Assembly (NCBI RefSeq): GCF_056746865.1
Contig: NZ_CM163382.1
Reading direction: 5' to 3' (one strand)
Length of the DNA: 64,000 bases
Positions within the stretch are counted from its first letter, which is position 1. Each line of letters begins with the position of its first letter. Both the position numbers and the translations under genes were made by a program. This document shows, in pieces, positions 32 through 7,873 of the stretch. Under the pieces are notes generated by a model. That model had not been told where the DNA came from. It was given only the letters and a program-made list of their open reading frames with translations, and searched no databases.

Positions 32-767
32 TTTTTAAAGTTTTTTATCCATTATTTATTCTGATTAATAATCAAAATTGAAATCCTGTCTTTGAAATGT
101 AATGGCAGTGCAACAATCACTATTCAGAACAGAAATCACCTTTCTCTGCCTGAACACAATTAATCAATATATCCCAGTGACCGTTCTCTAAGCGAGCTAC
201 ACCATAATACCCAGCCAGAACCAGGGTTTTTTCTGTACAACTGATATAACCAGTGCACATTTTTACCTCGCTGGGTAAATCTGGCTGAACAACATCATCC
301 CCGATTATTTGCCACACACCATAATCAGACGTTGCCCAGACACAATTTTCATACCATACCATTTGCCTGAACGGTAAGGTTAACTCCCCCCGATGAATCA
401 TCTTCCATTGATCTTTTCGACCTTTAAATACAGTACCGCTTTGCGCACCGATATAAACATAGCCATCCTGACCACAACAGATAGATTCAATGAGCATGTT
501 GCTGGGAAAATGAATTTGCCTCCATTCATCACCATCGAAATTCCAGACATCTCCTTTACCGCCTGCGGCATAGATATCATTTTCAGAGAAGCCATCCACA
601 CAACTAAAACCAGCAGCATCCAGGAATAGCATCTGTTCACGGATTGTTTTAATTTCATCTTGCGCAGGGAGATGGATACCTTTATTTAGTTTCTCCCAAT
701 TATTTCTATCTATCCTGCGAACAACACTACGTGCGGATCCTACAACATACAATCGATGGATTTGCCC

Positions 768-1673
768 CTATATTTCCAGACACCTGTTATCACTTAACCC
801 ATTACTGGCCCGCTGCCGTAGATATTCCCGTGGCGAGCGATAACCCAGTGCACTATGCGGATGCCATTCGTTATAATGCTCGAACGCCTCTGCAAGGTTC
901 TTTGCTGCCGTTAACCCGTCTGGTTTAGGCATGATACTGATGTAGTCACGCTTTATCGTTTTCACGAAGCTCTCTGCTATGCCGTTACTCTCCGGACTCC
1001 GCACCGCCGTGTTCTTCGGTTCAAGCCCCAACATCCGGGCAAACTGCCGTGTTTCATTAGCCCGGTAGCATGAACCATTATCCGTCAGCCACTCTACTGG
1101 AGACGCCGGAAGCTCGTTGCCGAAGCGGCGTTCCACCGCTCCCAGCATTACGTCCTGTACTGTTTCACTGTCGAAGCCGCCCGTAGTGACTGCCCAGTGC
1201 AGTGCCTCACGGTCACAGCAGTCCAGCGCGAACGTGACTCGCAGTTTTTCTCCGTTATCACAGCGGAACTCGAACCCGTCAGAGCACCATCGTTGATTGC
1301 TTTCTTTCACGGCCACTTTGCCAGTATGTGCCCGTTTCGATGGCGGTACAGCGGTTTTTCGCTCAAGCAACAGCGCATTCTGGCGCATGATCCGGTAAAC
1401 ACGTTTGGCATTGATCGCAGGCATACCATCAAGTTCGGCCTGTCTGCGAAGCAGCGCCCATACCCGACGATAACCATACGTGGGCAGCTCTCCGATAACA
1501 TGGTGTATACGGAGAAGCACATCCGTATCATCTGAGTGACGGCTGCGGCGACCATCTTTCCAGTCATCGGTTCGTCTGAGAATGACGTGCAACTGCGCAC
1601 GCGACACCCGGAGACAACGGCTGACTAAGCTTACTCCCCATCCCCGGGCAATAAGGGCGCGTGCGCTATCCAC
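768..1673 (-). CDS. insD: IS2 transposase OrfB (InsD)
   Basis: 301-aa ORF recognised as IS2 InsD (ends ...[31 protein letters not shown]); integrase catalytic core. Confidence 0.9.
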
Positions 1674-1996
1674 TTTTTTGCACGCCCGTATTCAACGGCT
1701 TCTTTAAGGAGTTCATTTTCCATCGTTTTTTTGCCGAGCAGGCGCTGGAGTTCTTTAATCTGCTTCATGGCAGCAGCAAGTTCAGAGGCAGGAACGACCT
1801 GCTCTCCTGCGGCCACAGCAGTAAGACTTCCCTCCTGGTATTGCTTGCGCCAGAGAAATAACTGGCTGGCTGCCACACCGTGTTGCCGGGCAACAAGGGA
1901 GACCGTCATTCCCGGTTCAAAACTCTGCTGAACAATAGCGATCTTTTCCTGTGTAGTACGCCGTCTGCGTTTCTCCGGTCCTAAGACATCAATCAT
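1631..1996 (-). CDS. insC: IS2 OrfA (InsC), helix-turn-helix protein
   Basis: ORF contains [56 protein letters not shown]; start placed at the internal Met matching the 121-aa InsC; overlaps insD as expected for a frameshift-fused transposase. Confidence 0.85.
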
Positions 1997-2497
1997 CTGC
2001 TCTCCAATGACTAGTCTAAAAACTAGTATTAAGACTATCACTTATTTAAGTGATATTGGTTGTCTGGAGATTCAGGGGGCCAGTCTAATCGACCACCAAT
2101 AGTCCGGGTATTGCTAATGGCAAATTCATATGGGATCGGTTCTTCAAGCCCTTCAAAACCACTACCTATAGCAAAAACCTCATTTTCCATTGTAACGCCC
2201 ACGTACTGACTGAATGGAATACTGGTTGTAGCCGAAAATATCTTGTCCATTCCTTCATAACCGCTGTATCCCCATTGCTCTCCTAATGGTTCATCAAAAA
2301 AAAAGGAAACAAAATTTTTTCTTGCCAGATGTTCTTCCATTACAGGGTCTATATCATCTCGCTTTTCTCGTGTAGTTATATAAATATAACCAGTGTCTCT
2401 TACTGCAACACCATTAATATAAAACCCTTTGAATATTTCATTGTACTCATCTTGAGTAATAATCATGTTTTTAATCTCATATTATTTTCATTTGTTT

Positions 2498-2812
2498 TTA
2501 CTGGAGTAAGAGTATGGACGGGATTGTTTTCCACCCATGCCCTTTCTGGAATCCCGGTGTCGCCGGAACATTCCCTTCACTGGTAGAGAAATACGAGCGA
2601 TCTTTCTGTGCCACCATCGACTTACAGATAAATACGGTAGCTGTTCCGTTCTGCAAATCCCGGGCATACGCCGTGTTGGAATAAGGCACAACGACCGGGC
2701 CTGTGGGCGGAGGAGGAGGGGACCAGCAGGGATCGGGAAATGCGCCAGCAGATTTCCCGTCAGACGCTCTGGAGCAGGCTTCCCGCCCGTTGATATAAAC
2801 GTTAGTTTCCAT
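2498..2812 (-). CDS. Hypothetical small ORF (104 aa, proline-rich) between paralog B and paralog A
   Basis: ORF ends 31 bp upstream of the paralog A start; its first codons (METNVY) lie in the conserved repeat downstream of B and C; the remainder is a GC-rich segment absent from the C-to-B spacer; coding status uncertain. Confidence 0.25.
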   Translation of the reverse strand: METNVYINGREACSRASDGKSAGAFPDPCWSPPPPPTGPVVVPYSNTAYARDLQNGTATVFICKSMVAQKDRSYFSTSEGNVPATPGFQKGHGWKTIPSILLLQ

Positions 2813-3365
2813 AATGTGCTATCCGTGTACCCACTTTCCTTTAAATTAACTGCTGGCCCGGGAGGCTATTCAAACGCCATTGAATCAAAGAGGACATTCC
2901 AGGCATTACCATCATAAATAGCAGCTCCTCTGGAGCCACAAACCATCATCACTGTCCCATCGGGGGAAACATCAATTCTTTTACTTAAAACGGCCACTTC
3001 AGGAGGGACGGGTTTATGTTTTGCATGCATGGCGAGCACCAGTTTGTCATCTTCCAGTACCCAGATGCCATAATCACTGGCACACCAGAGACGTCCATCA
3101 AACCATCCCATGTCGAGGAAAGGCATGGTCATTCCACCATGCGTAATTTGTGTCCATTGCTCATTGCGACCCTTCCATATAGCACCGTCAAAATCAGCAA
3201 TATAAACAAATCCGTCACCGGCACAGCAAACTGTGTACAGAAGTTTATTTGTCGGAAAAGGGAGTTTTTTCCATTGCTCACCATTAAAGTGATAAACGGT
3301 TCCCGTTCCACCCACTGCATACATATCTGACTCGGAAAAACCAGATAAATCCTGAAATAAGCTTC
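2796..3365. repeat. Direct repeat copy 1, about 570 bp: 3' half of paralog B plus about 70 bp of its 3' flank
   Basis: Near-identical to 3943..4512 (a handful of mismatches); repeat spacing 1147 bp. Confidence 0.85.
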
Positions 3366-3906
3366 TGGACATCGACTCAGCCTTCCGTTCCAGGAATCCA
3401 TCGGGAACAGGAATAGTTTGTGAAGCATCCAGCCAAACCTGATGATTAATTCGTTTATATATTCTTAACCCTCCCCCAATTGCATAGACACTTGTTCCTA
3501 CTCTGACTACCTTAATTATAGCTGTTCTCATGTCTGAGGATTTAGAAATAGGAATATCCAGATTATTTTCTCGTCCCTTGTATTCTCTGGTTTTGTAGCT
3601 TATGACTTCACAGTCGATATCAACTATAACTAATTCAGTTTGGGAAGGTGACCATCCAGCCGATATCGTTGGATAGCTCAAATTACCGAAAGACATCCCA
3701 AACACCCTGTTTTCAGGAGGGTTGTCAATAACTATTGATACCAGCTTGTGTTTAGGCATGTAATAGTCGTTGCCATATTCGATATGATTTTCATCAATTT
3801 TTTCAATTAATAATAAGCCAACGCGGCCATGTTCAAAGCCATATGTACAATCATATACTTCAAAATTTTTAAAGGTTTTATCCCAACGTTCTTGACTAAT
3901 AATCAT
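2866..3906 (-). CDS. Hypothetical protein, paralog B (346 aa) with beta-propeller-like repeats resembling BNR/Ycf48 or Kelch blades
   Basis: Intact 346-aa ORF; the C-terminal ~155-160 aa (from DLSGFSESDMYAVGG) are identical to paralog C, the N-terminal half about 60 percent identical; repeated blade-like motifs (YAIGGG...W, YAVGGTGTVYHFNGEQW, FDGAIWKGRNEQW, YDGNAW). Confidence 0.75.
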   Translation of the reverse strand: MIISQERWDKTFKNFEVYDCTYGFEHGRVGLLLIEKIDENHIEYGNDYYMPKHKLVSIVIDNPPENRVFGMSFGNLSYPTISAGWSPSQTELVIVDIDCEVISYKTREYKGRENNLDIPISKSSDMRTAIIKVVRVGTSVYAIGGGLRIYKRINHQVWLDASQTIPVPDGFLERKAESMSRSLFQDLSGFSESDMYAVGGTGTVYHFNGEQWKKLPFPTNKLLYTVCCAGDGFVYIADFDGAIWKGRNEQWTQITHGGMTMPFLDMGWFDGRLWCASDYGIWVLEDDKLVLAMHAKHKPVPPEVAVLSKRIDVSPDGTVMMVCGSRGAAIYDGNAWNVLFDSMAFE

Positions 3907-3942
3907 TTCATTTCCTTAGTTATCACAATTATCATCATAGCT

Positions 3943-4512
3943 ATCTATAAACGTTAGTTTCCATAATATGCTATCCGTGTGCCCACTTTCCTTTAAATTA
4001 ACTGCTGGCCCGGGAGGCTATTCAAACGCCATTGAATCAAAGAGGACATTCCAGGCATTACCATCATAAATAGCAGCTCCTCTGGAACCACAAACCATCA
4101 TCACGGTCCCATCGGGTGAAACATCAATTCTTTTACTTAAAACGGCCACTTCAGGAGGGACGGGTTTATGTTTTGCATGCATGGCAAGCACCAGTTTGTC
4201 ATCTTCCAGCACCCAGATGCCATAATCACTGGCACACCAGAGACGTCCATCAAACCATCCCATGTCGAGGAATGGCATGGTCATTCCACCATGCGTAATT
4301 TGTGTCCATTGTTCATTGCGACCCTTCCATATAGCACCGTCAAAATCAGCAATATAAACAAATCCGTCACCGGCACAGCAAACTGTGTACAGAAGTTTAT
4401 TTGTCGGAAAAGGGAGTTGTTTCCATTGCTCACCATTAAAGTGATAAACCGTTCCCGTTCCGCCCACTGCATACATATCCGATTCGGAAAAACCAGATAA
4501 ATCTCGGAATCG
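3943..4512. repeat. Direct repeat copy 2, about 570 bp: 3' half of paralog C plus its 3' flank
   Basis: Near-identical to 2796..3365. Confidence 0.85.
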
Positions 4513-5058
4513 ACTTCTGGTTATTGCTTCTACCTTCCTATCTAACAATCCATCGGGGACAGGCAGGTATGTAGAATGTTCCCGCCAAATTTGGTGATCA
4601 ACACGTTTGTATATTCTGAAACCACTACCGATAGCGTAAACACTGTTTTCAATTCGTACTACTTTTATTATAACGGAAAACATATCGATAGAACCTGGTA
4701 TGAGTATATTTATACTTTCTTCTACTCCTTTGTATACATCTTCTTTATAACTCATAACATCACGGTCCTGACTGACCATAACATATTCGGTCTGAGATGG
4801 GGGCCAACCAGAAGATATAGTCATCAGAGATATCCCTGTTGCGCGACGACCATATATGCGATATTTTTTGGAGAGGGTAAACGTAATGGAAATTAATCTC
4901 TTTTCAGGTGGGTAAAAAGGGTTTTCATATTCGGCATGCTCCTCATCTACCACTTCAATCAATGAAAGACCTACTTTTCCATGCTCGTAACCATAGGTGC
5001 AGTCATATATATAAAAGCCTTTGAGATATTTCTGATACGATTCTATATCTATGATCAT
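4018..5058 (-). CDS. Hypothetical protein, paralog C (346 aa) with beta-propeller-like repeats
   Basis: Intact 346-aa ORF; C-terminal half identical to paralog B, N-terminal half diverged; low GC. Confidence 0.75.
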   Translation of the reverse strand: MIIDIESYQKYLKGFYIYDCTYGYEHGKVGLSLIEVVDEEHAEYENPFYPPEKRLISITFTLSKKYRIYGRRATGISLMTISSGWPPSQTEYVMVSQDRDVMSYKEDVYKGVEESINILIPGSIDMFSVIIKVVRIENSVYAIGSGFRIYKRVDHQIWREHSTYLPVPDGLLDRKVEAITRSRFRDLSGFSESDMYAVGGTGTVYHFNGEQWKQLPFPTNKLLYTVCCAGDGFVYIADFDGAIWKGRNEQWTQITHGGMTMPFLDMGWFDGRLWCASDYGIWVLEDDKLVLAMHAKHKPVPPEVAVLSKRIDVSPDGTVMMVCGSRGAAIYDGNAWNVLFDSMAFE

Positions 5059-5083
5059 TTATCACCTCAAATATCTTCATCGT

Positions 5084-5383
5084 TTATAACACCCCCATCA
5101 CCTGCATTGATTTTTGCAGAGTTAAATCACCACAGGTATAAGCGTCTTGGTAAGCTTTATCCAGTTGCGCTTTCAAACAAGATTTATCACAACCGTACAT
5201 TAATGCAACCTCATCAATTACCATACATCTGGCATCTTTATAACTCATTTCTTTTCCAAAATGCTTTTCTTCTATTAGAGTGCCTGTAGCTGAGTGTAAT
5301 GCACCATGTGAACCAGTACGATTGTCTTTTCCTTCCAGACAAATTGTAGGCGCTTTGCCTTCGGTATATTCCCCCCCCAGCAC
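5084..5383 (-). CDS. Hypothetical small protein (99 aa), tightly coupled upstream of paralog C
   Basis: ORF ends 26 bp before the paralog C start; GTG start codon inferred; a run of 8 G on the coding strand sits at codons 3-5; no recognisable homology. Confidence 0.35.
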   Translation of the reverse strand: MLGGEYTEGKAPTICLEGKDNRTGSHGALHSATGTLIEEKHFGKEMSYKDARCMVIDEVALMYGCDKSCLKAQLDKAYQDAYTCGDLTLQKSMQVMGVL

Positions 5384-5751
5384 TTTCTTGTTGGATATTT
5401 GCTACGGGGCATTCTTTATATTAATTTTTCTTCCTTATGGAGTATCTCTGTTTGACACTTTAAAGTCTCTATGAGAATTATAAGATTTTTTTTAAAATAA
5501 TACGTTTTCAGATTTAGCAACAGGATTTTCACTCATACGATTAATATACGATATTTTAATCTCAAAAATATATTTGGCTGGTGAAGCTATCTGGGGTGTA
5601 TATTCACACCACATATATTATCAAAAGGCAGTTACGCTACCGCCATACCCTGATAAAACTCACCATCTGCACGAAACGGATTTTACGCTTTTTCTTCCGG
5701 CGAAATATCAAATTCTCAATTCAAATAATATCTATTGCGTTATATGACCTA

Positions 5752-7200
5752 TCACTCCCTCTCCGGCAGCACAATCACAAACCTTGTTCCTCGCGCATCT
5801 GACGTTACCGCAACTGTGCCTTTATGCGCGACAACAATCGATTTCACTATCGCCAGCCCAATGCCGCTACCTTCGCCTTTTCGCTGGCGGGAAGGATCAA
5901 CGCGGTAGAAACGGTCAAACAATCGCGGTAAGTGTTCGGGCGCAATGGGCGTACCGGGGTTTTCGACGGTAACTTGCACCTGATGATCGACCGCCTGGCA
6001 GCGTACTACAATAGCCTCTCCGGGTGGCGTATAACGCAGGGCATTAGAAAGCAGGTTGTTTAACGCCCGACGCAGCATCAGCGGATCGCCCGCAACCTGA
6101 CACTCGTCACCAACAAACCGCAACTCCACGCCGCGATCTTCCGCTAACGCCTCGAAAAAATCGAACACTTTGCCGACTTCATCCGCCAGGTTGAGCATTT
6201 TCTTTTCGGGGATTAACTGGTTGTTATCGGCCTGGGCGAGAAACAACATATCGCTGACCATTTTCGCCATTCGCGTCAGCTCTTCGAGATTAGAGTAGAG
6301 CACATCTTCCAGCTCCTTCTGGCTGCGTGACTGGCTGAGGGCGATTTCGGTTTGCGTTATGAGATTCGTAATTGGTGTACGAATTTCGTGAGCGATATCC
6401 GCTGAGAAATTGGACTGGCGAGTAAAGACATCCTCAATACGCTCGATCATATGGTTGAACGACAGTACCAGCTGTTCCAGCTCAATCGGCACGGTCTGCG
6501 GGTCAAGGCGAACGTCGAGATCTTTCGAGGTGATATTCTGGATTTGACGGCTGACGCTGCGGATCGGCGCGTGACCTTTATGTACCGCCAATAGCACGAT
6601 AAAGACGATCAGGATGCTGATGATCGATGCGGTCATAATAAGTTTATTCATCAAATCATTTATGTAATGAAGATGAAAATCGATCGAAAGCGCGATGTAG
6701 AGCGTATAAATCGGTTTGCCGTCCACCAACGGGCCAACCGGCAAGTTAATCATCCGCCAGTTGCTGTGTTCCATATGCCCGTGACCGTGGCCCGGCATCA
6801 TCATTGTCGGGCCGGAAAGGAGATACACCTCGCCGCCCCGCGCGTCTTTATCGGGTATGGCATCACGTGCAAACTCGCGGATATCGGGCGCACCGGGGGA
6901 GTGATATACCGTTTTACCGTGGCTATCTGCCAGGGAGATCAACACATTGGAATAACCACTGACAATATCTTCCAGCGTCATTAAGCGTCGGGCTTGCGTT
7001 TCGTCAGGGTGATTAAGTACCCGTTCAAGTGTGGCGCTAATTTCTTTTAAATCATTAATATCCTGCTCGGCAAAATGCACTTTTACCGAGTGGATCATTA
7101 TCCATGCAAAGGCGAAAAACGCCGCGATGGTGGCGAGGCTGATAAAAAAGGTCAGGCGGGTTGCCAGCGAAAACGGGCGCTGAAATGGCTTACTGACCAT
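5752..7200 (-). CDS. cusS: Copper/silver-sensing histidine kinase CusS
   Basis: Translation matches CusS ([16 protein letters not shown]...; periplasmic sensor, HAMP, HisKA and ATPase regions); start set at the internal Met of the 486-aa ORF. Confidence 0.92.
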
Positions 7201-7873
7201 CCGGCACCTCAAGCATGTAACCCACGCCGCGCACGGTTTGAATCAGCTTCGGCTCAAAGTCGTTGTCGATTTTGCCACGCAGCCGCTTCACCGCCACATC
7301 AATGGCGTTAGTGTCGCTGTCGAAATTCATGTCCCACACCTGCGAGGCGATAAGCGAGCGGGGCAGCACTTCGCCCTGATGGCGAAGGAAAAACTCCAGC
7401 AGAGTAAACTCTTTACTGGTCAGAGTGATGCGCGTACCGCTGCGGGTGACTTTGCGGCTGACGAGATCGACCATCAAATCGGCAACCTGAAACTGACTTT
7501 CGATAATCACCGCCGCCCCGCGCCGCAGTAATGTGCGCACCCGCGCCAGCAGTTCAGCAAAAGCGAATGGCTTCACCAGGTAGTCATCTGCCCCCAACTC
7601 CAGCCCCTTGACGCGATGTTCAATGGTGCCAAGCGCGGTAAGCAACAGAATCGGCATCCCTTTATTGGCGGAACGCAACATACGCACGATATCCCAGCCG
7701 TTCACGTCTGGCAGCATAATATCGAGGATTATCAGGTCATAATCACCGGTCATCGCCAGATGGTAGCCATTCAGCCCGTTGTCGGCCAAATCGACCACAA
7801 AACCGGCTTCGGTTAACCCTTTGGTCAAGTATTCTCCGGTTTTCTTTTCATCTTCGACAATCAACAGTTTCAT
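7190..7873 (-). CDS. cusR: Copper-responsive response regulator CusR (OmpR family)
   Basis: 227-aa [23 protein letters not shown]...; receiver plus winged-helix domains; overlaps the cusS start by 11 bp. Confidence 0.95.

Follow-up and report, generated by a model that had tools for sequence, protein, structure and literature searches.

How do two neighbouring genes come to be nearly identical over one half of their length and strongly diverged over the other? The question is raised by two paralogs, here called gene B and gene C, which lie near the start of a 64,000-nt stretch of Escherichia coli DNA (contig NZ_CM163382.1 of NCBI RefSeq assembly GCF_056746865.1; the whole stretch is referred to as the window) in an island between nfrB and cusS. 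Both encode a predicted beta-propeller protein and are presumed to be orphan immunity genes of a type VI secretion system (T6SS), whereas an earlier inspection of the letters alone (the sequence-only reading) had not given the genes an identity. We propose, with a probability of roughly 0.8, that the repeat covering their 3' halves is the constant segment of a T6SS array stripped of its toxins, and that this segment was homogenised by gene conversion with the specificity halves of the genes kept divergent.

Extent and register of the repeat

The repeat was mapped with a repeat finder and by direct alignment of its two direct copies. Genes and copies are arranged as follows.

2866..3906, minus strand: gene B, intact open reading frame (ORF) for a 346-aa single-domain beta-propeller, presumed orphan T6SS immunity gene of the B type
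4018..5058, minus strand: gene C, intact ORF for a 346-aa beta-propeller, presumed orphan T6SS immunity gene of the C type with an apparently converted 3' half
2794..3351, minus strand: repeat copy R_B, consisting of the 3' 486 nt of gene B, a spacer of 53 nt and the initial 19 nt (METNVY) of a PAAR-like toxin remnant
3946..4503, minus strand: repeat copy R_C, consisting of the 3' 486 nt of gene C, the spacer and the 19-nt start stub of a deleted toxin (toxin 2)

The copies align without gaps at an offset that equals the distance between the stop codons at 2866 and 4018, and form a high-identity block (2794-3351 = 3946-4503) of 558 bp with 14 mismatches, i.e. 97.5% identity. The near-identical direct repeat reported in the sequence-only reading is thus present and requires small corrections of its coordinates: the intervals given there, 2796..3365 and 3943..4512, are mutually 5 nt out of register, as the true offset is 1152 nt and not 1147 nt. 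Two of the mismatches are non-coding (within the 72 nt past the stop codons) and one is a replacement (K214Q); the remaining 11 of the 12 coding mismatches are synonymous, in agreement with the handful of partly synonymous substitutions described before.

Upstream of the block, identity collapses. Genes B and C share 97.5% of the nucleotides in the 3' 486 coding nt and 57.5% in the 5' 555 coding nt, which bears out the claimed divergence of the 5' halves; the corresponding protein identities are 99.4% (residues 185-346) and 52% (residues 1-184). In a maximum chi-square analysis, gene nt 555 is the last position before the breakpoint (codon 185/186, window position 3352), and chi-square is 229, compared to a highest value of 21 among 5,000 site permutations used as control. 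The alignment therefore reveals a sharp block of identity rather than uniform divergence along the gene, just as the sequence-only reading had expected.

At its other end, the repeat extends 72 nt beyond both stop codons, takes in ATGGAAACTAACGTTTATA (METNVY) and stops abruptly at 2794/3946. The earlier description of an extension by about 70 bp that includes METNVY is accurate, but these codons, then taken as the beginning of the next ORF, are the start of a deleted PAAR-like toxin gene. The downstream end of the repeat is the scar of the toxin 2 deletion and not a recombination endpoint. Chance was rejected as the source of the repeat. An assembly artefact was ruled out as well, since the locus is at least 99% (mostly 100%) identical in 152 complete E. 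coli genomes.

Histories of the two gene halves

Both gene types also occur in Escherichia whittamii and in the same order as in E. coli, with a C-like gene 1 followed by a B-like gene 2. The latter provides the closest 5' half to that of gene B and is itself located behind a PAAR-like/Tox-GHH2 toxin. Neighbour-joining (NJ) trees of 12 genes, computed by codon segment with 200 bootstraps, are incongruent along the gene. Over codons 1-184, E. coli B clusters with E. whittamii gene 2 and the homologue P0009 (100%) and E. coli C with the metagenomic homologue P0002 (100%), the 5' half of gene C falling into a group with E. whittamii gene 1, Citrobacter koseri and P0002. Over codons 223-346, E. 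coli C leaves this group and joins E. coli B (100%), and the two E. whittamii genes cluster with each other and P0009 (99%). In the intervening codons 185-222, E. coli C is found within the B-type group, and E. whittamii gene 1, which was not converted here, stays with C. koseri. It follows from these groupings that the tract of E. coli reaches further upstream than that of E. whittamii.

Nucleotide identities in the 5' half are lower between the paralogs of one genome (57.5% for E. coli B vs C, 61.3% for E. whittamii 1 vs 2) than between same-type genes across species (73.5% for C vs gene 1, 76.9% for B vs gene 2). In the 3' half, the paralogs of one genome are the closest (97.5% in E. coli and 94.2% in E. 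whittamii, compared to 90.5-93.4% for cross-species pairs). For B and C, the synonymous distance (dS) has reached saturation in the 5' half (codons 1-184) and amounts to 0.094 in codons 223-346, with a nonsynonymous distance (dN) of 0 there, and homogenisation extends to non-coding sites, with 2 differences in the 72 nt after the stop. The tract starts at about codon 185 in E. coli, whereas in E. whittamii the stretch of 100% identity sets in near gene nt 727 (~codon 243) and runs through the spacer; the latter species shows nested tracts. Recombination or concerted evolution, previously proposed from the sharp intragenic boundary, is well supported by the tree incongruence, the drop in dS and the differing tract ends, and concerted evolution by gene conversion appears to have taken place independently in the two lineages.

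Could the same identity arise without any recombination, merely by far stronger purifying selection on the 3' half than on the 5' half? The family does show a gradient of this kind, as invariant or nearly invariant residues among 68 members are all found at or beyond residue 152, and paralog A, a further presumed immunity gene of the island, is likewise closer to B and C in its 3' half (~57% nucleotide identity) than in its 5' half (~40%). However, constraint on the protein can hold neither synonymous sites (dS 0.09 vs saturation) nor 72 non-coding nt, and it cannot make paralogs group by genome. Identity at synonymous and non-coding sites refutes purifying selection as the only cause, and we assign virtually no probability to this explanation.

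Bacterial paralogs such as tufA/tufB and the ribosomal RNA (rRNA) operons are known to undergo concerted evolution by gene conversion. The pattern at the present locus is similar in that paralogs within a genome are closer than orthologs, synonymous and flanking non-coding sites are homogenised and tract ends are sharp. It differs in that conversion is confined to part of the gene and halts where the variable half meets the constant half. The one unusual feature is a recombination boundary inside a single-domain immunity ORF. As a natural case, the locus cleanly illustrates partial-gene concerted evolution at a site of conflict.

A rival explanation dispenses with conversion: one unit may have been duplicated recently in tandem, and a foreign allele may then have replaced its variable core (toxin C-terminus and immunity 5' half), in which case the identical 3' halves would be remnants of the duplication. 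Such a replacement would fit with toxin C-terminus and immunity N-terminal half travelling together, with a cross-species dS that is higher in 5' halves than in 3' ends, with E. coli C and P0002 being close in the 5' half (dS 0.83) and distant in the 3' end (dS 1.44), and with a pair of Citrobacter freundii toxins that share ~1.3 kb at 100% identity, their differences being confined to the extreme 3' end and the immunity gene. It is challenged by E. whittamii, where the same two types occur in the same order and where, as in E. coli, 5' halves group by type (100%) and 3' halves by genome. As this pattern is parallel in both species, independent duplications followed by replacements with the same two types would be required; in addition, tract ends differ between the species and the tracts of E. 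whittamii are nested. We thus regard duplication and replacement as improbable, although it is the strongest of the competing explanations considered here.

Homogenisation of a constant segment by gene conversion remains our preferred explanation, and several points weigh against it. B-type genes are confined to a single E. coli lineage, a single E. whittamii genome and a single short contig from a metagenome, such that the incongruence is drawn from few independent lineages and from NJ trees of segments of 114-552 nt. The direction of conversion, B into C, is only weakly indicated by the middle segment (66-75% support). Cross-species dS is 1.1-1.35 for same-type 5' halves and 0.29-0.41 for 3' ends, with E. 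coli C and P0002 showing the reverse pattern. Since dS across species is higher in 5' than in 3' parts, conversion within the array alone is insufficient and exchange of cassettes or constant segments between lineages must have happened; judged from these distances, the two gene halves appear to have separate histories throughout the family. On the side of function, none of the six window ORFs matched NCBIfam, Pfam yielded only an insignificant Tectonin match for gene B, a PDB sequence search with the propeller family profile found no match and hence no solved homologue, and a promoter scan of the orphan genes gave fewer matches than shuffled controls and no convincing promoter.

Intact arrays and a model of exchange between units

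But what is the function of genes B and C, and why should their constant half end in the middle of a protein? An AlphaFold2 model of the gene B protein based on 68 homologues shows a single all-beta propeller (predicted local distance difference test score, pLDDT, 95.3; predicted template modelling score, pTM, 0.93), and a Foldseek search of this model against the PDB returned only generic WD40/tectonin propellers, none of which is an immunity protein. Homologues were found in E. whittamii, C. koseri, C. freundii, Salmonella enterica and Kluyvera georgiana; those of Betaproteobacteria are more distant. In the enterobacterial loci, the propeller gene (~340 aa) is located 9-20 nt behind the gene of a ~530-aa toxin, which is intact or, in some loci, a fragment. 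The toxins of these relatives (526-538 aa) carry a PAAR-like domain (PF13665; DUF4150/PIPY) at the N-terminus and a C-terminal Tox-GHH2 nuclease domain (PF15635). In loci with upstream DNA available, the T6SS cluster has the order VgrG, DUF6484, DUF2169, thiolase-like gene, toxin and propeller gene, and two to four successive toxin-propeller pairs are often present. A scan of species-representative genomes gave three loci only, too few for a broad test, and the metagenomic contigs were short.

Given their position directly behind a toxin, with one copy per toxin, the propeller genes are presumed to be immunity genes. They might instead be accessory, adaptor or chaperone genes, with the E. coli array being functionless debris and its 3' identity having no selective meaning. 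The lack of a homologue in Pseudomonas aeruginosa (where the immunity protein Tsi7 is defined) in the family searches, the absence of a clear promoter and the presence of insertion sequence (IS) elements in gene A of the window, and in B or C in some strains, would be compatible with such a role. However, one propeller gene per toxin at a distance of 9-20 nt downstream is the canonical immunity position; B and C have kept intact 346-codon ORFs, while all three toxins of the array were destroyed; dN/dS between species is ~0.14 for the 5' halves, compared to 0.03-0.05 for the 3' ends; the N-terminal half co-varies with the toxin C-terminus; and the known adaptors (DUF2169, DUF6484 and the thiolase-like gene) are separate genes further upstream. 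We hence consider an accessory role very unlikely. In line with the presumed immunity function, we infer that the orphans are expressed and may shield E. coli from the GHH2 toxins that competitors in the gut deploy.

A comparison of the two E. whittamii units by sliding identity separates constant from variable segments. The toxins are 91-100% identical over the first ~600 nt, 80-90% in the middle and 52-76% at the nuclease end, whereas the immunity genes are 50-73% identical over the 5' half and 97-100% over the last ~350 nt and the spacer. Likewise, within each of four other genomes (including Salmonella, C. freundii and L010), paralogous toxins show 90-100% identity over their first 350-400 nt, compared to ~80% between genera or against the E. 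coli remnant. Across nine toxin-immunity pairs, the distance between toxin C-termini correlates with that between immunity N-terminal halves (Spearman 0.66) but not with that between C-terminal halves (0.11), and the two immunity halves do not follow each other either (0.08). Therefore, the unit of variation consists of the toxin nuclease end and the immunity 5' half, and the unit of homogenisation of the immunity 3' half, the spacer and the PAAR-like toxin start. By comparison with these intact units, the 558-bp repeat appears to be what was left of the constant segment after the deletion of toxin 2.

We suggest the following mechanism. Neighbouring units have in common a stretch made up of the 3' part of the immunity gene, the spacer and the PAAR-like beginning of the toxin that follows. 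The PAAR-like segments, which are long, near-identical and presumably constrained by loading onto VgrG/DUF2169 (PMC11883445), would serve as substrate for RecA-type recombination between units in the form of non-reciprocal gene conversion. Where immunity genes of the 346-aa type are adjacent, the heteroduplex could extend upstream via the spacer into the conserved C-terminal blades of the propeller, and sequence divergence would block its extension into the N-terminal blades. In armed arrays, selection would also block extension, as a cell that lost its cognate immunity would be killed. The nuclease end of the toxin and the 5' half of its immunity gene would thereby stay divergent and be inherited together as a specificity cassette, and codon 185, the upstream limit of the tract, would mark the point at which homology and selection for cognate immunity halt conversion.

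Following this argumentation, the intragenic boundary provides a hypothesis for the specificity site in an uncharacterised propeller immunity family: we infer that specificity probably resides in the N-terminal blades. A stronger version, which we regard as possible but rather doubtful, holds that the immunity protein is a single propeller of two modules, with N-terminal blades that co-evolve and are transferred together with the nuclease and determine specificity, and C-terminal blades that, along with the spacer and the PAAR-like start of the following toxin, make up the homogenised constant region acting as homology arm. If true, the array would be a cassette-exchange system with a downstream recombination site inside the immunity ORF, and specificities could be swapped or toxins lost without breaking the propeller scaffold.

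The PAAR-like/Tox-GHH2 architecture and the order VgrG, DUF6484, DUF2169, thiolase-like gene, effector and immunity gene are shared with Tse7 and its cluster in P. aeruginosa (PMC4067218, PMC11883445, PMC9846239). Tse7-Tsi7 (PA0099-PA0100) is encoded in the vgrG1b cluster and has the DUF2169 'synteny type A' arrangement (PMC11883445; PMC4067218). In contrast to the 315-386 aa reported for Tse7 homologues, the enterobacterial toxins comprise 526-538 aa, and they come in tandem arrays of two to four pairs; in further contrast to Tse7-Tsi7, no toxin is intact in the window. No P. aeruginosa protein was obtained among 85 and 109 family matches (the latter from a search with a Pseudomonas member, the Tsi7 sequence itself not being compared). 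We did not file the propeller family as Tsi7 because no P. aeruginosa homologue was among the 109 matches, and homology between the propellers and Tsi7 does not appear to be supported. In the survey of Zhang et al. 2012, no immunity family was listed for Tox-GHH2, and propellers were not then seen among immunity proteins (PMC3482391).

The E. coli array resembles the auxiliary clusters of Vibrio cholerae (Kirchberger et al. 2017) and the AID/rAID systems of Bacteroidales, in which tandem immunity genes are kept without effectors, remnants of effector 3' ends adjoin them, homologous recombination shapes the arrays and protection against non-kin is the probable benefit (PMC5361080; PMC12247911). 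While an incoming module displaces the old effector in V. cholerae, the toxins of the E. coli array were deleted in place and left start and stop stubs. Moreover, unlike these arrays, that of E. coli is located outside any T6SS cluster (between nfrB and cusS), and its neighbouring immunity genes are partly homogenised inside the coding sequence. With the polymorphic-toxin loci of the Rhs and contact-dependent inhibition (CDI) type, which have orphan toxin-immunity modules, it has in common a constant region shared by the modules and a variable cassette of toxin C-terminus and immunity gene; the cassettes are reshuffled by recombination through the constant region (Zhang et al. 2012, PMC3482391; Koskiniemi et al. 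2014 as cited in PMC5361080). In Rhs/CDI loci, however, the constant region is restricted to sequence upstream of the toxin C-terminus and the immunity gene varies over its entire length, whereas here it wraps around the unit boundary into the 3' half of the preceding immunity gene and turns the immunity protein into a mosaic. Orphan immunity arrays and recombination between constant and variable regions are already well described, and none of the principles involved is new.

Some relatives show further peculiarities. The E. whittamii contig ends at L005 8785-8849, 65 nt after immunity gene 2, within the constant segment and just past the ATGGAAAC start of a further toxin, which suggests that the assembly broke at the repeat and that the array has three units or more. 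For each of the two C. freundii toxins (L009 6427-7991 and 9983-11583), two ORFs are called. The toxins share ~1.3 kb at 100% identity, and divergence is limited to the last ~150 nt and to the immunity genes that follow, of which one is frameshifted (232 + 86 aa); this pair is the product of a very recent duplication or of conversion with a different boundary. Three propeller paralogs were found on one contig each in Roseateles chitinivorans (P0105, P0115 and P0137; consecutive locus tags ACQ859_17440/17445/17450) and Roseateles amylovorans (P0106, P0112 and P0114). The consecutive locus tags in R. chitinivorans suggest immunity-only tandem arrays far outside the Enterobacteriaceae.

The disarmed island of E. 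coli and its distribution

Apart from genes B and C, the island contains three toxin remnants and an interrupted third immunity gene.

5084..5432, minus strand: toxin 1 remnant, 3' end of a Tox-GHH2 nuclease effector, 5'-truncated and with a decayed C-terminus (ORF 5084-5383, 99 aa)
3916..3964, minus strand: toxin 2 scar, first 19 nt (3964-3946, METNVYR-stop) fused to last 30 nt (3945-3916, ...DSYDDNCDN-stop)
2498..2812, minus strand: toxin 3 remnant, 104-aa ORF with most of the PAAR-like (DUF4150/PIPY) domain, remainder deleted
2087..2466, minus strand: interrupted immunity gene A (336-aa type), 5' part, collinear with the uninterrupted gene of strain 118UI (L001 8370-9380)
757..2086, minus strand: IS2-like (IS3-family) element of ~1.33 kb with transposase ORFs 768-1673 and 1631-2041, interrupting gene A near codon 127
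120..756, minus strand: 3' part of immunity gene A

Read along the minus strand, the order is toxin 1 stub, gene C, toxin 2 scar, gene B, toxin 3 stub and gene A. The toxin 1 stub matches Pfam Tox-GHH2 (E=3.7e-6, model positions 31-120 of 122), and the remnant is collinear with E. whittamii toxin 1 from L005 4655 onward, with the toxin C-termini aligned as well. A direct comparison of the junction with E. whittamii L005 shows that the toxin 2 scar lacks nt 6155-7704 (1,550 nt), that is nearly the whole toxin; there is no obvious microhomology, and the ribosome-binding site and start of gene B are kept right after the scar. The toxin 3 stub matches Pfam Tox-PAAR-like (E=7e-11), and over 2541-2813 identity amounts to 93.8% with the 5' end of E. 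whittamii toxin 1 and to ~80% with Citrobacter and Salmonella toxins. With only a 104-aa stub, a 99-aa stub and a 19+30-nt scar, no single window protein joins the PF13665 and PF15635 domains, and the window thus holds remnants of PAAR-like/Tox-GHH2 effectors, not members. By homology to the intact arrays, the island appears to be a disarmed effector-immunity array in which C, B and A are left as orphan presumed immunity genes.

We surveyed 5,426 complete E. coli genomes and found the disarmed array in 152 of them. Although the homologues follow 9-20 nt behind GHH2 toxins elsewhere, an intact copy of this toxin is present in 0 of the 5,426 genomes (none covers at least 80% of the toxin-immunity unit). 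About 3% of complete E. coli genomes hence carry a disarmed GHH2-nuclease array with two or three presumed immunity genes kept intact, which agrees with the notion of gut bacteria stockpiling antidotes to T6SS toxins from such neighbours as Citrobacter, Salmonella, Kluyvera and E. whittamii.

The repeat occurs in exactly two copies in every array-bearing genome (lowest = median = highest = 2), and the 5' halves of B and C are each found in one place in all 152. Among these genomes, we detected neither copy-number variants (one or three repeats, or a lost 5' half) nor alternative breakpoints, the locus being practically invariant. A change of copy number by unequal crossover, which the sequence-only reading had thought likely, is thus not seen. 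Its claim that the recombination was recent holds for recombination but less so for its age: the copies differ by 2.5%, while variation among the genomes is near zero, and the last conversion therefore predates the spread of the island.

The only structural variants among the E. coli arrays are IS insertions and an inversion mediated by ISEc62. In strain MS 198-1 (NZ_CP146687.1; L017 and L018), gene B is present in two pieces ~50 kb apart (~3.737 and ~3.788 Mb), which have opposite orientation and each adjoin a copy of the IS21-family element ISEc62; this split is an IS-mediated inversion and not a recombination between the repeats. In strain SCU-105 (H1, H110), gene C is split and the annotation shows an IS3-family element beneath the array match, and in strain EECO1006 (H111), an IS1 element lies inside B's repeat copy (gene B 3' half / PAAR-like stub). 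The array seems to act as an IS sink.

Strain 118UI, in which gene A is uninterrupted, allows a comparison with the window: positions 1-756 and 2087-6000 are 100% identical to L001 8251-9006 and 9001-12914, respectively, and the 6 nt at the insertion site of the IS2-like element (L001 9001-9006) are found on both of its flanks. Gene A and its upstream toxin remnant are 89% identical to a pair of toxin fragment and 336-aa gene in L010.

To the right of the array, a terminator-like hairpin follows cusS at 5644-5627. cusS, cusR and cusCFBA occupy the window from 5752 on, and 5752-64000 is ordinary E. coli core genome, with cusSR and cusCFBA followed by large ORFs. To the left of the window start, the island runs on toward nfrB (L001 2300-8250). 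Besides small hypothetical genes, this part contains a 203-nt fragment of a thiolase-like T6SS accessory gene (L001 8027-8229), two copies of ISEc1 and a SUKH-3 immunity gene, and looks like a graveyard of polymorphic-toxin parts.

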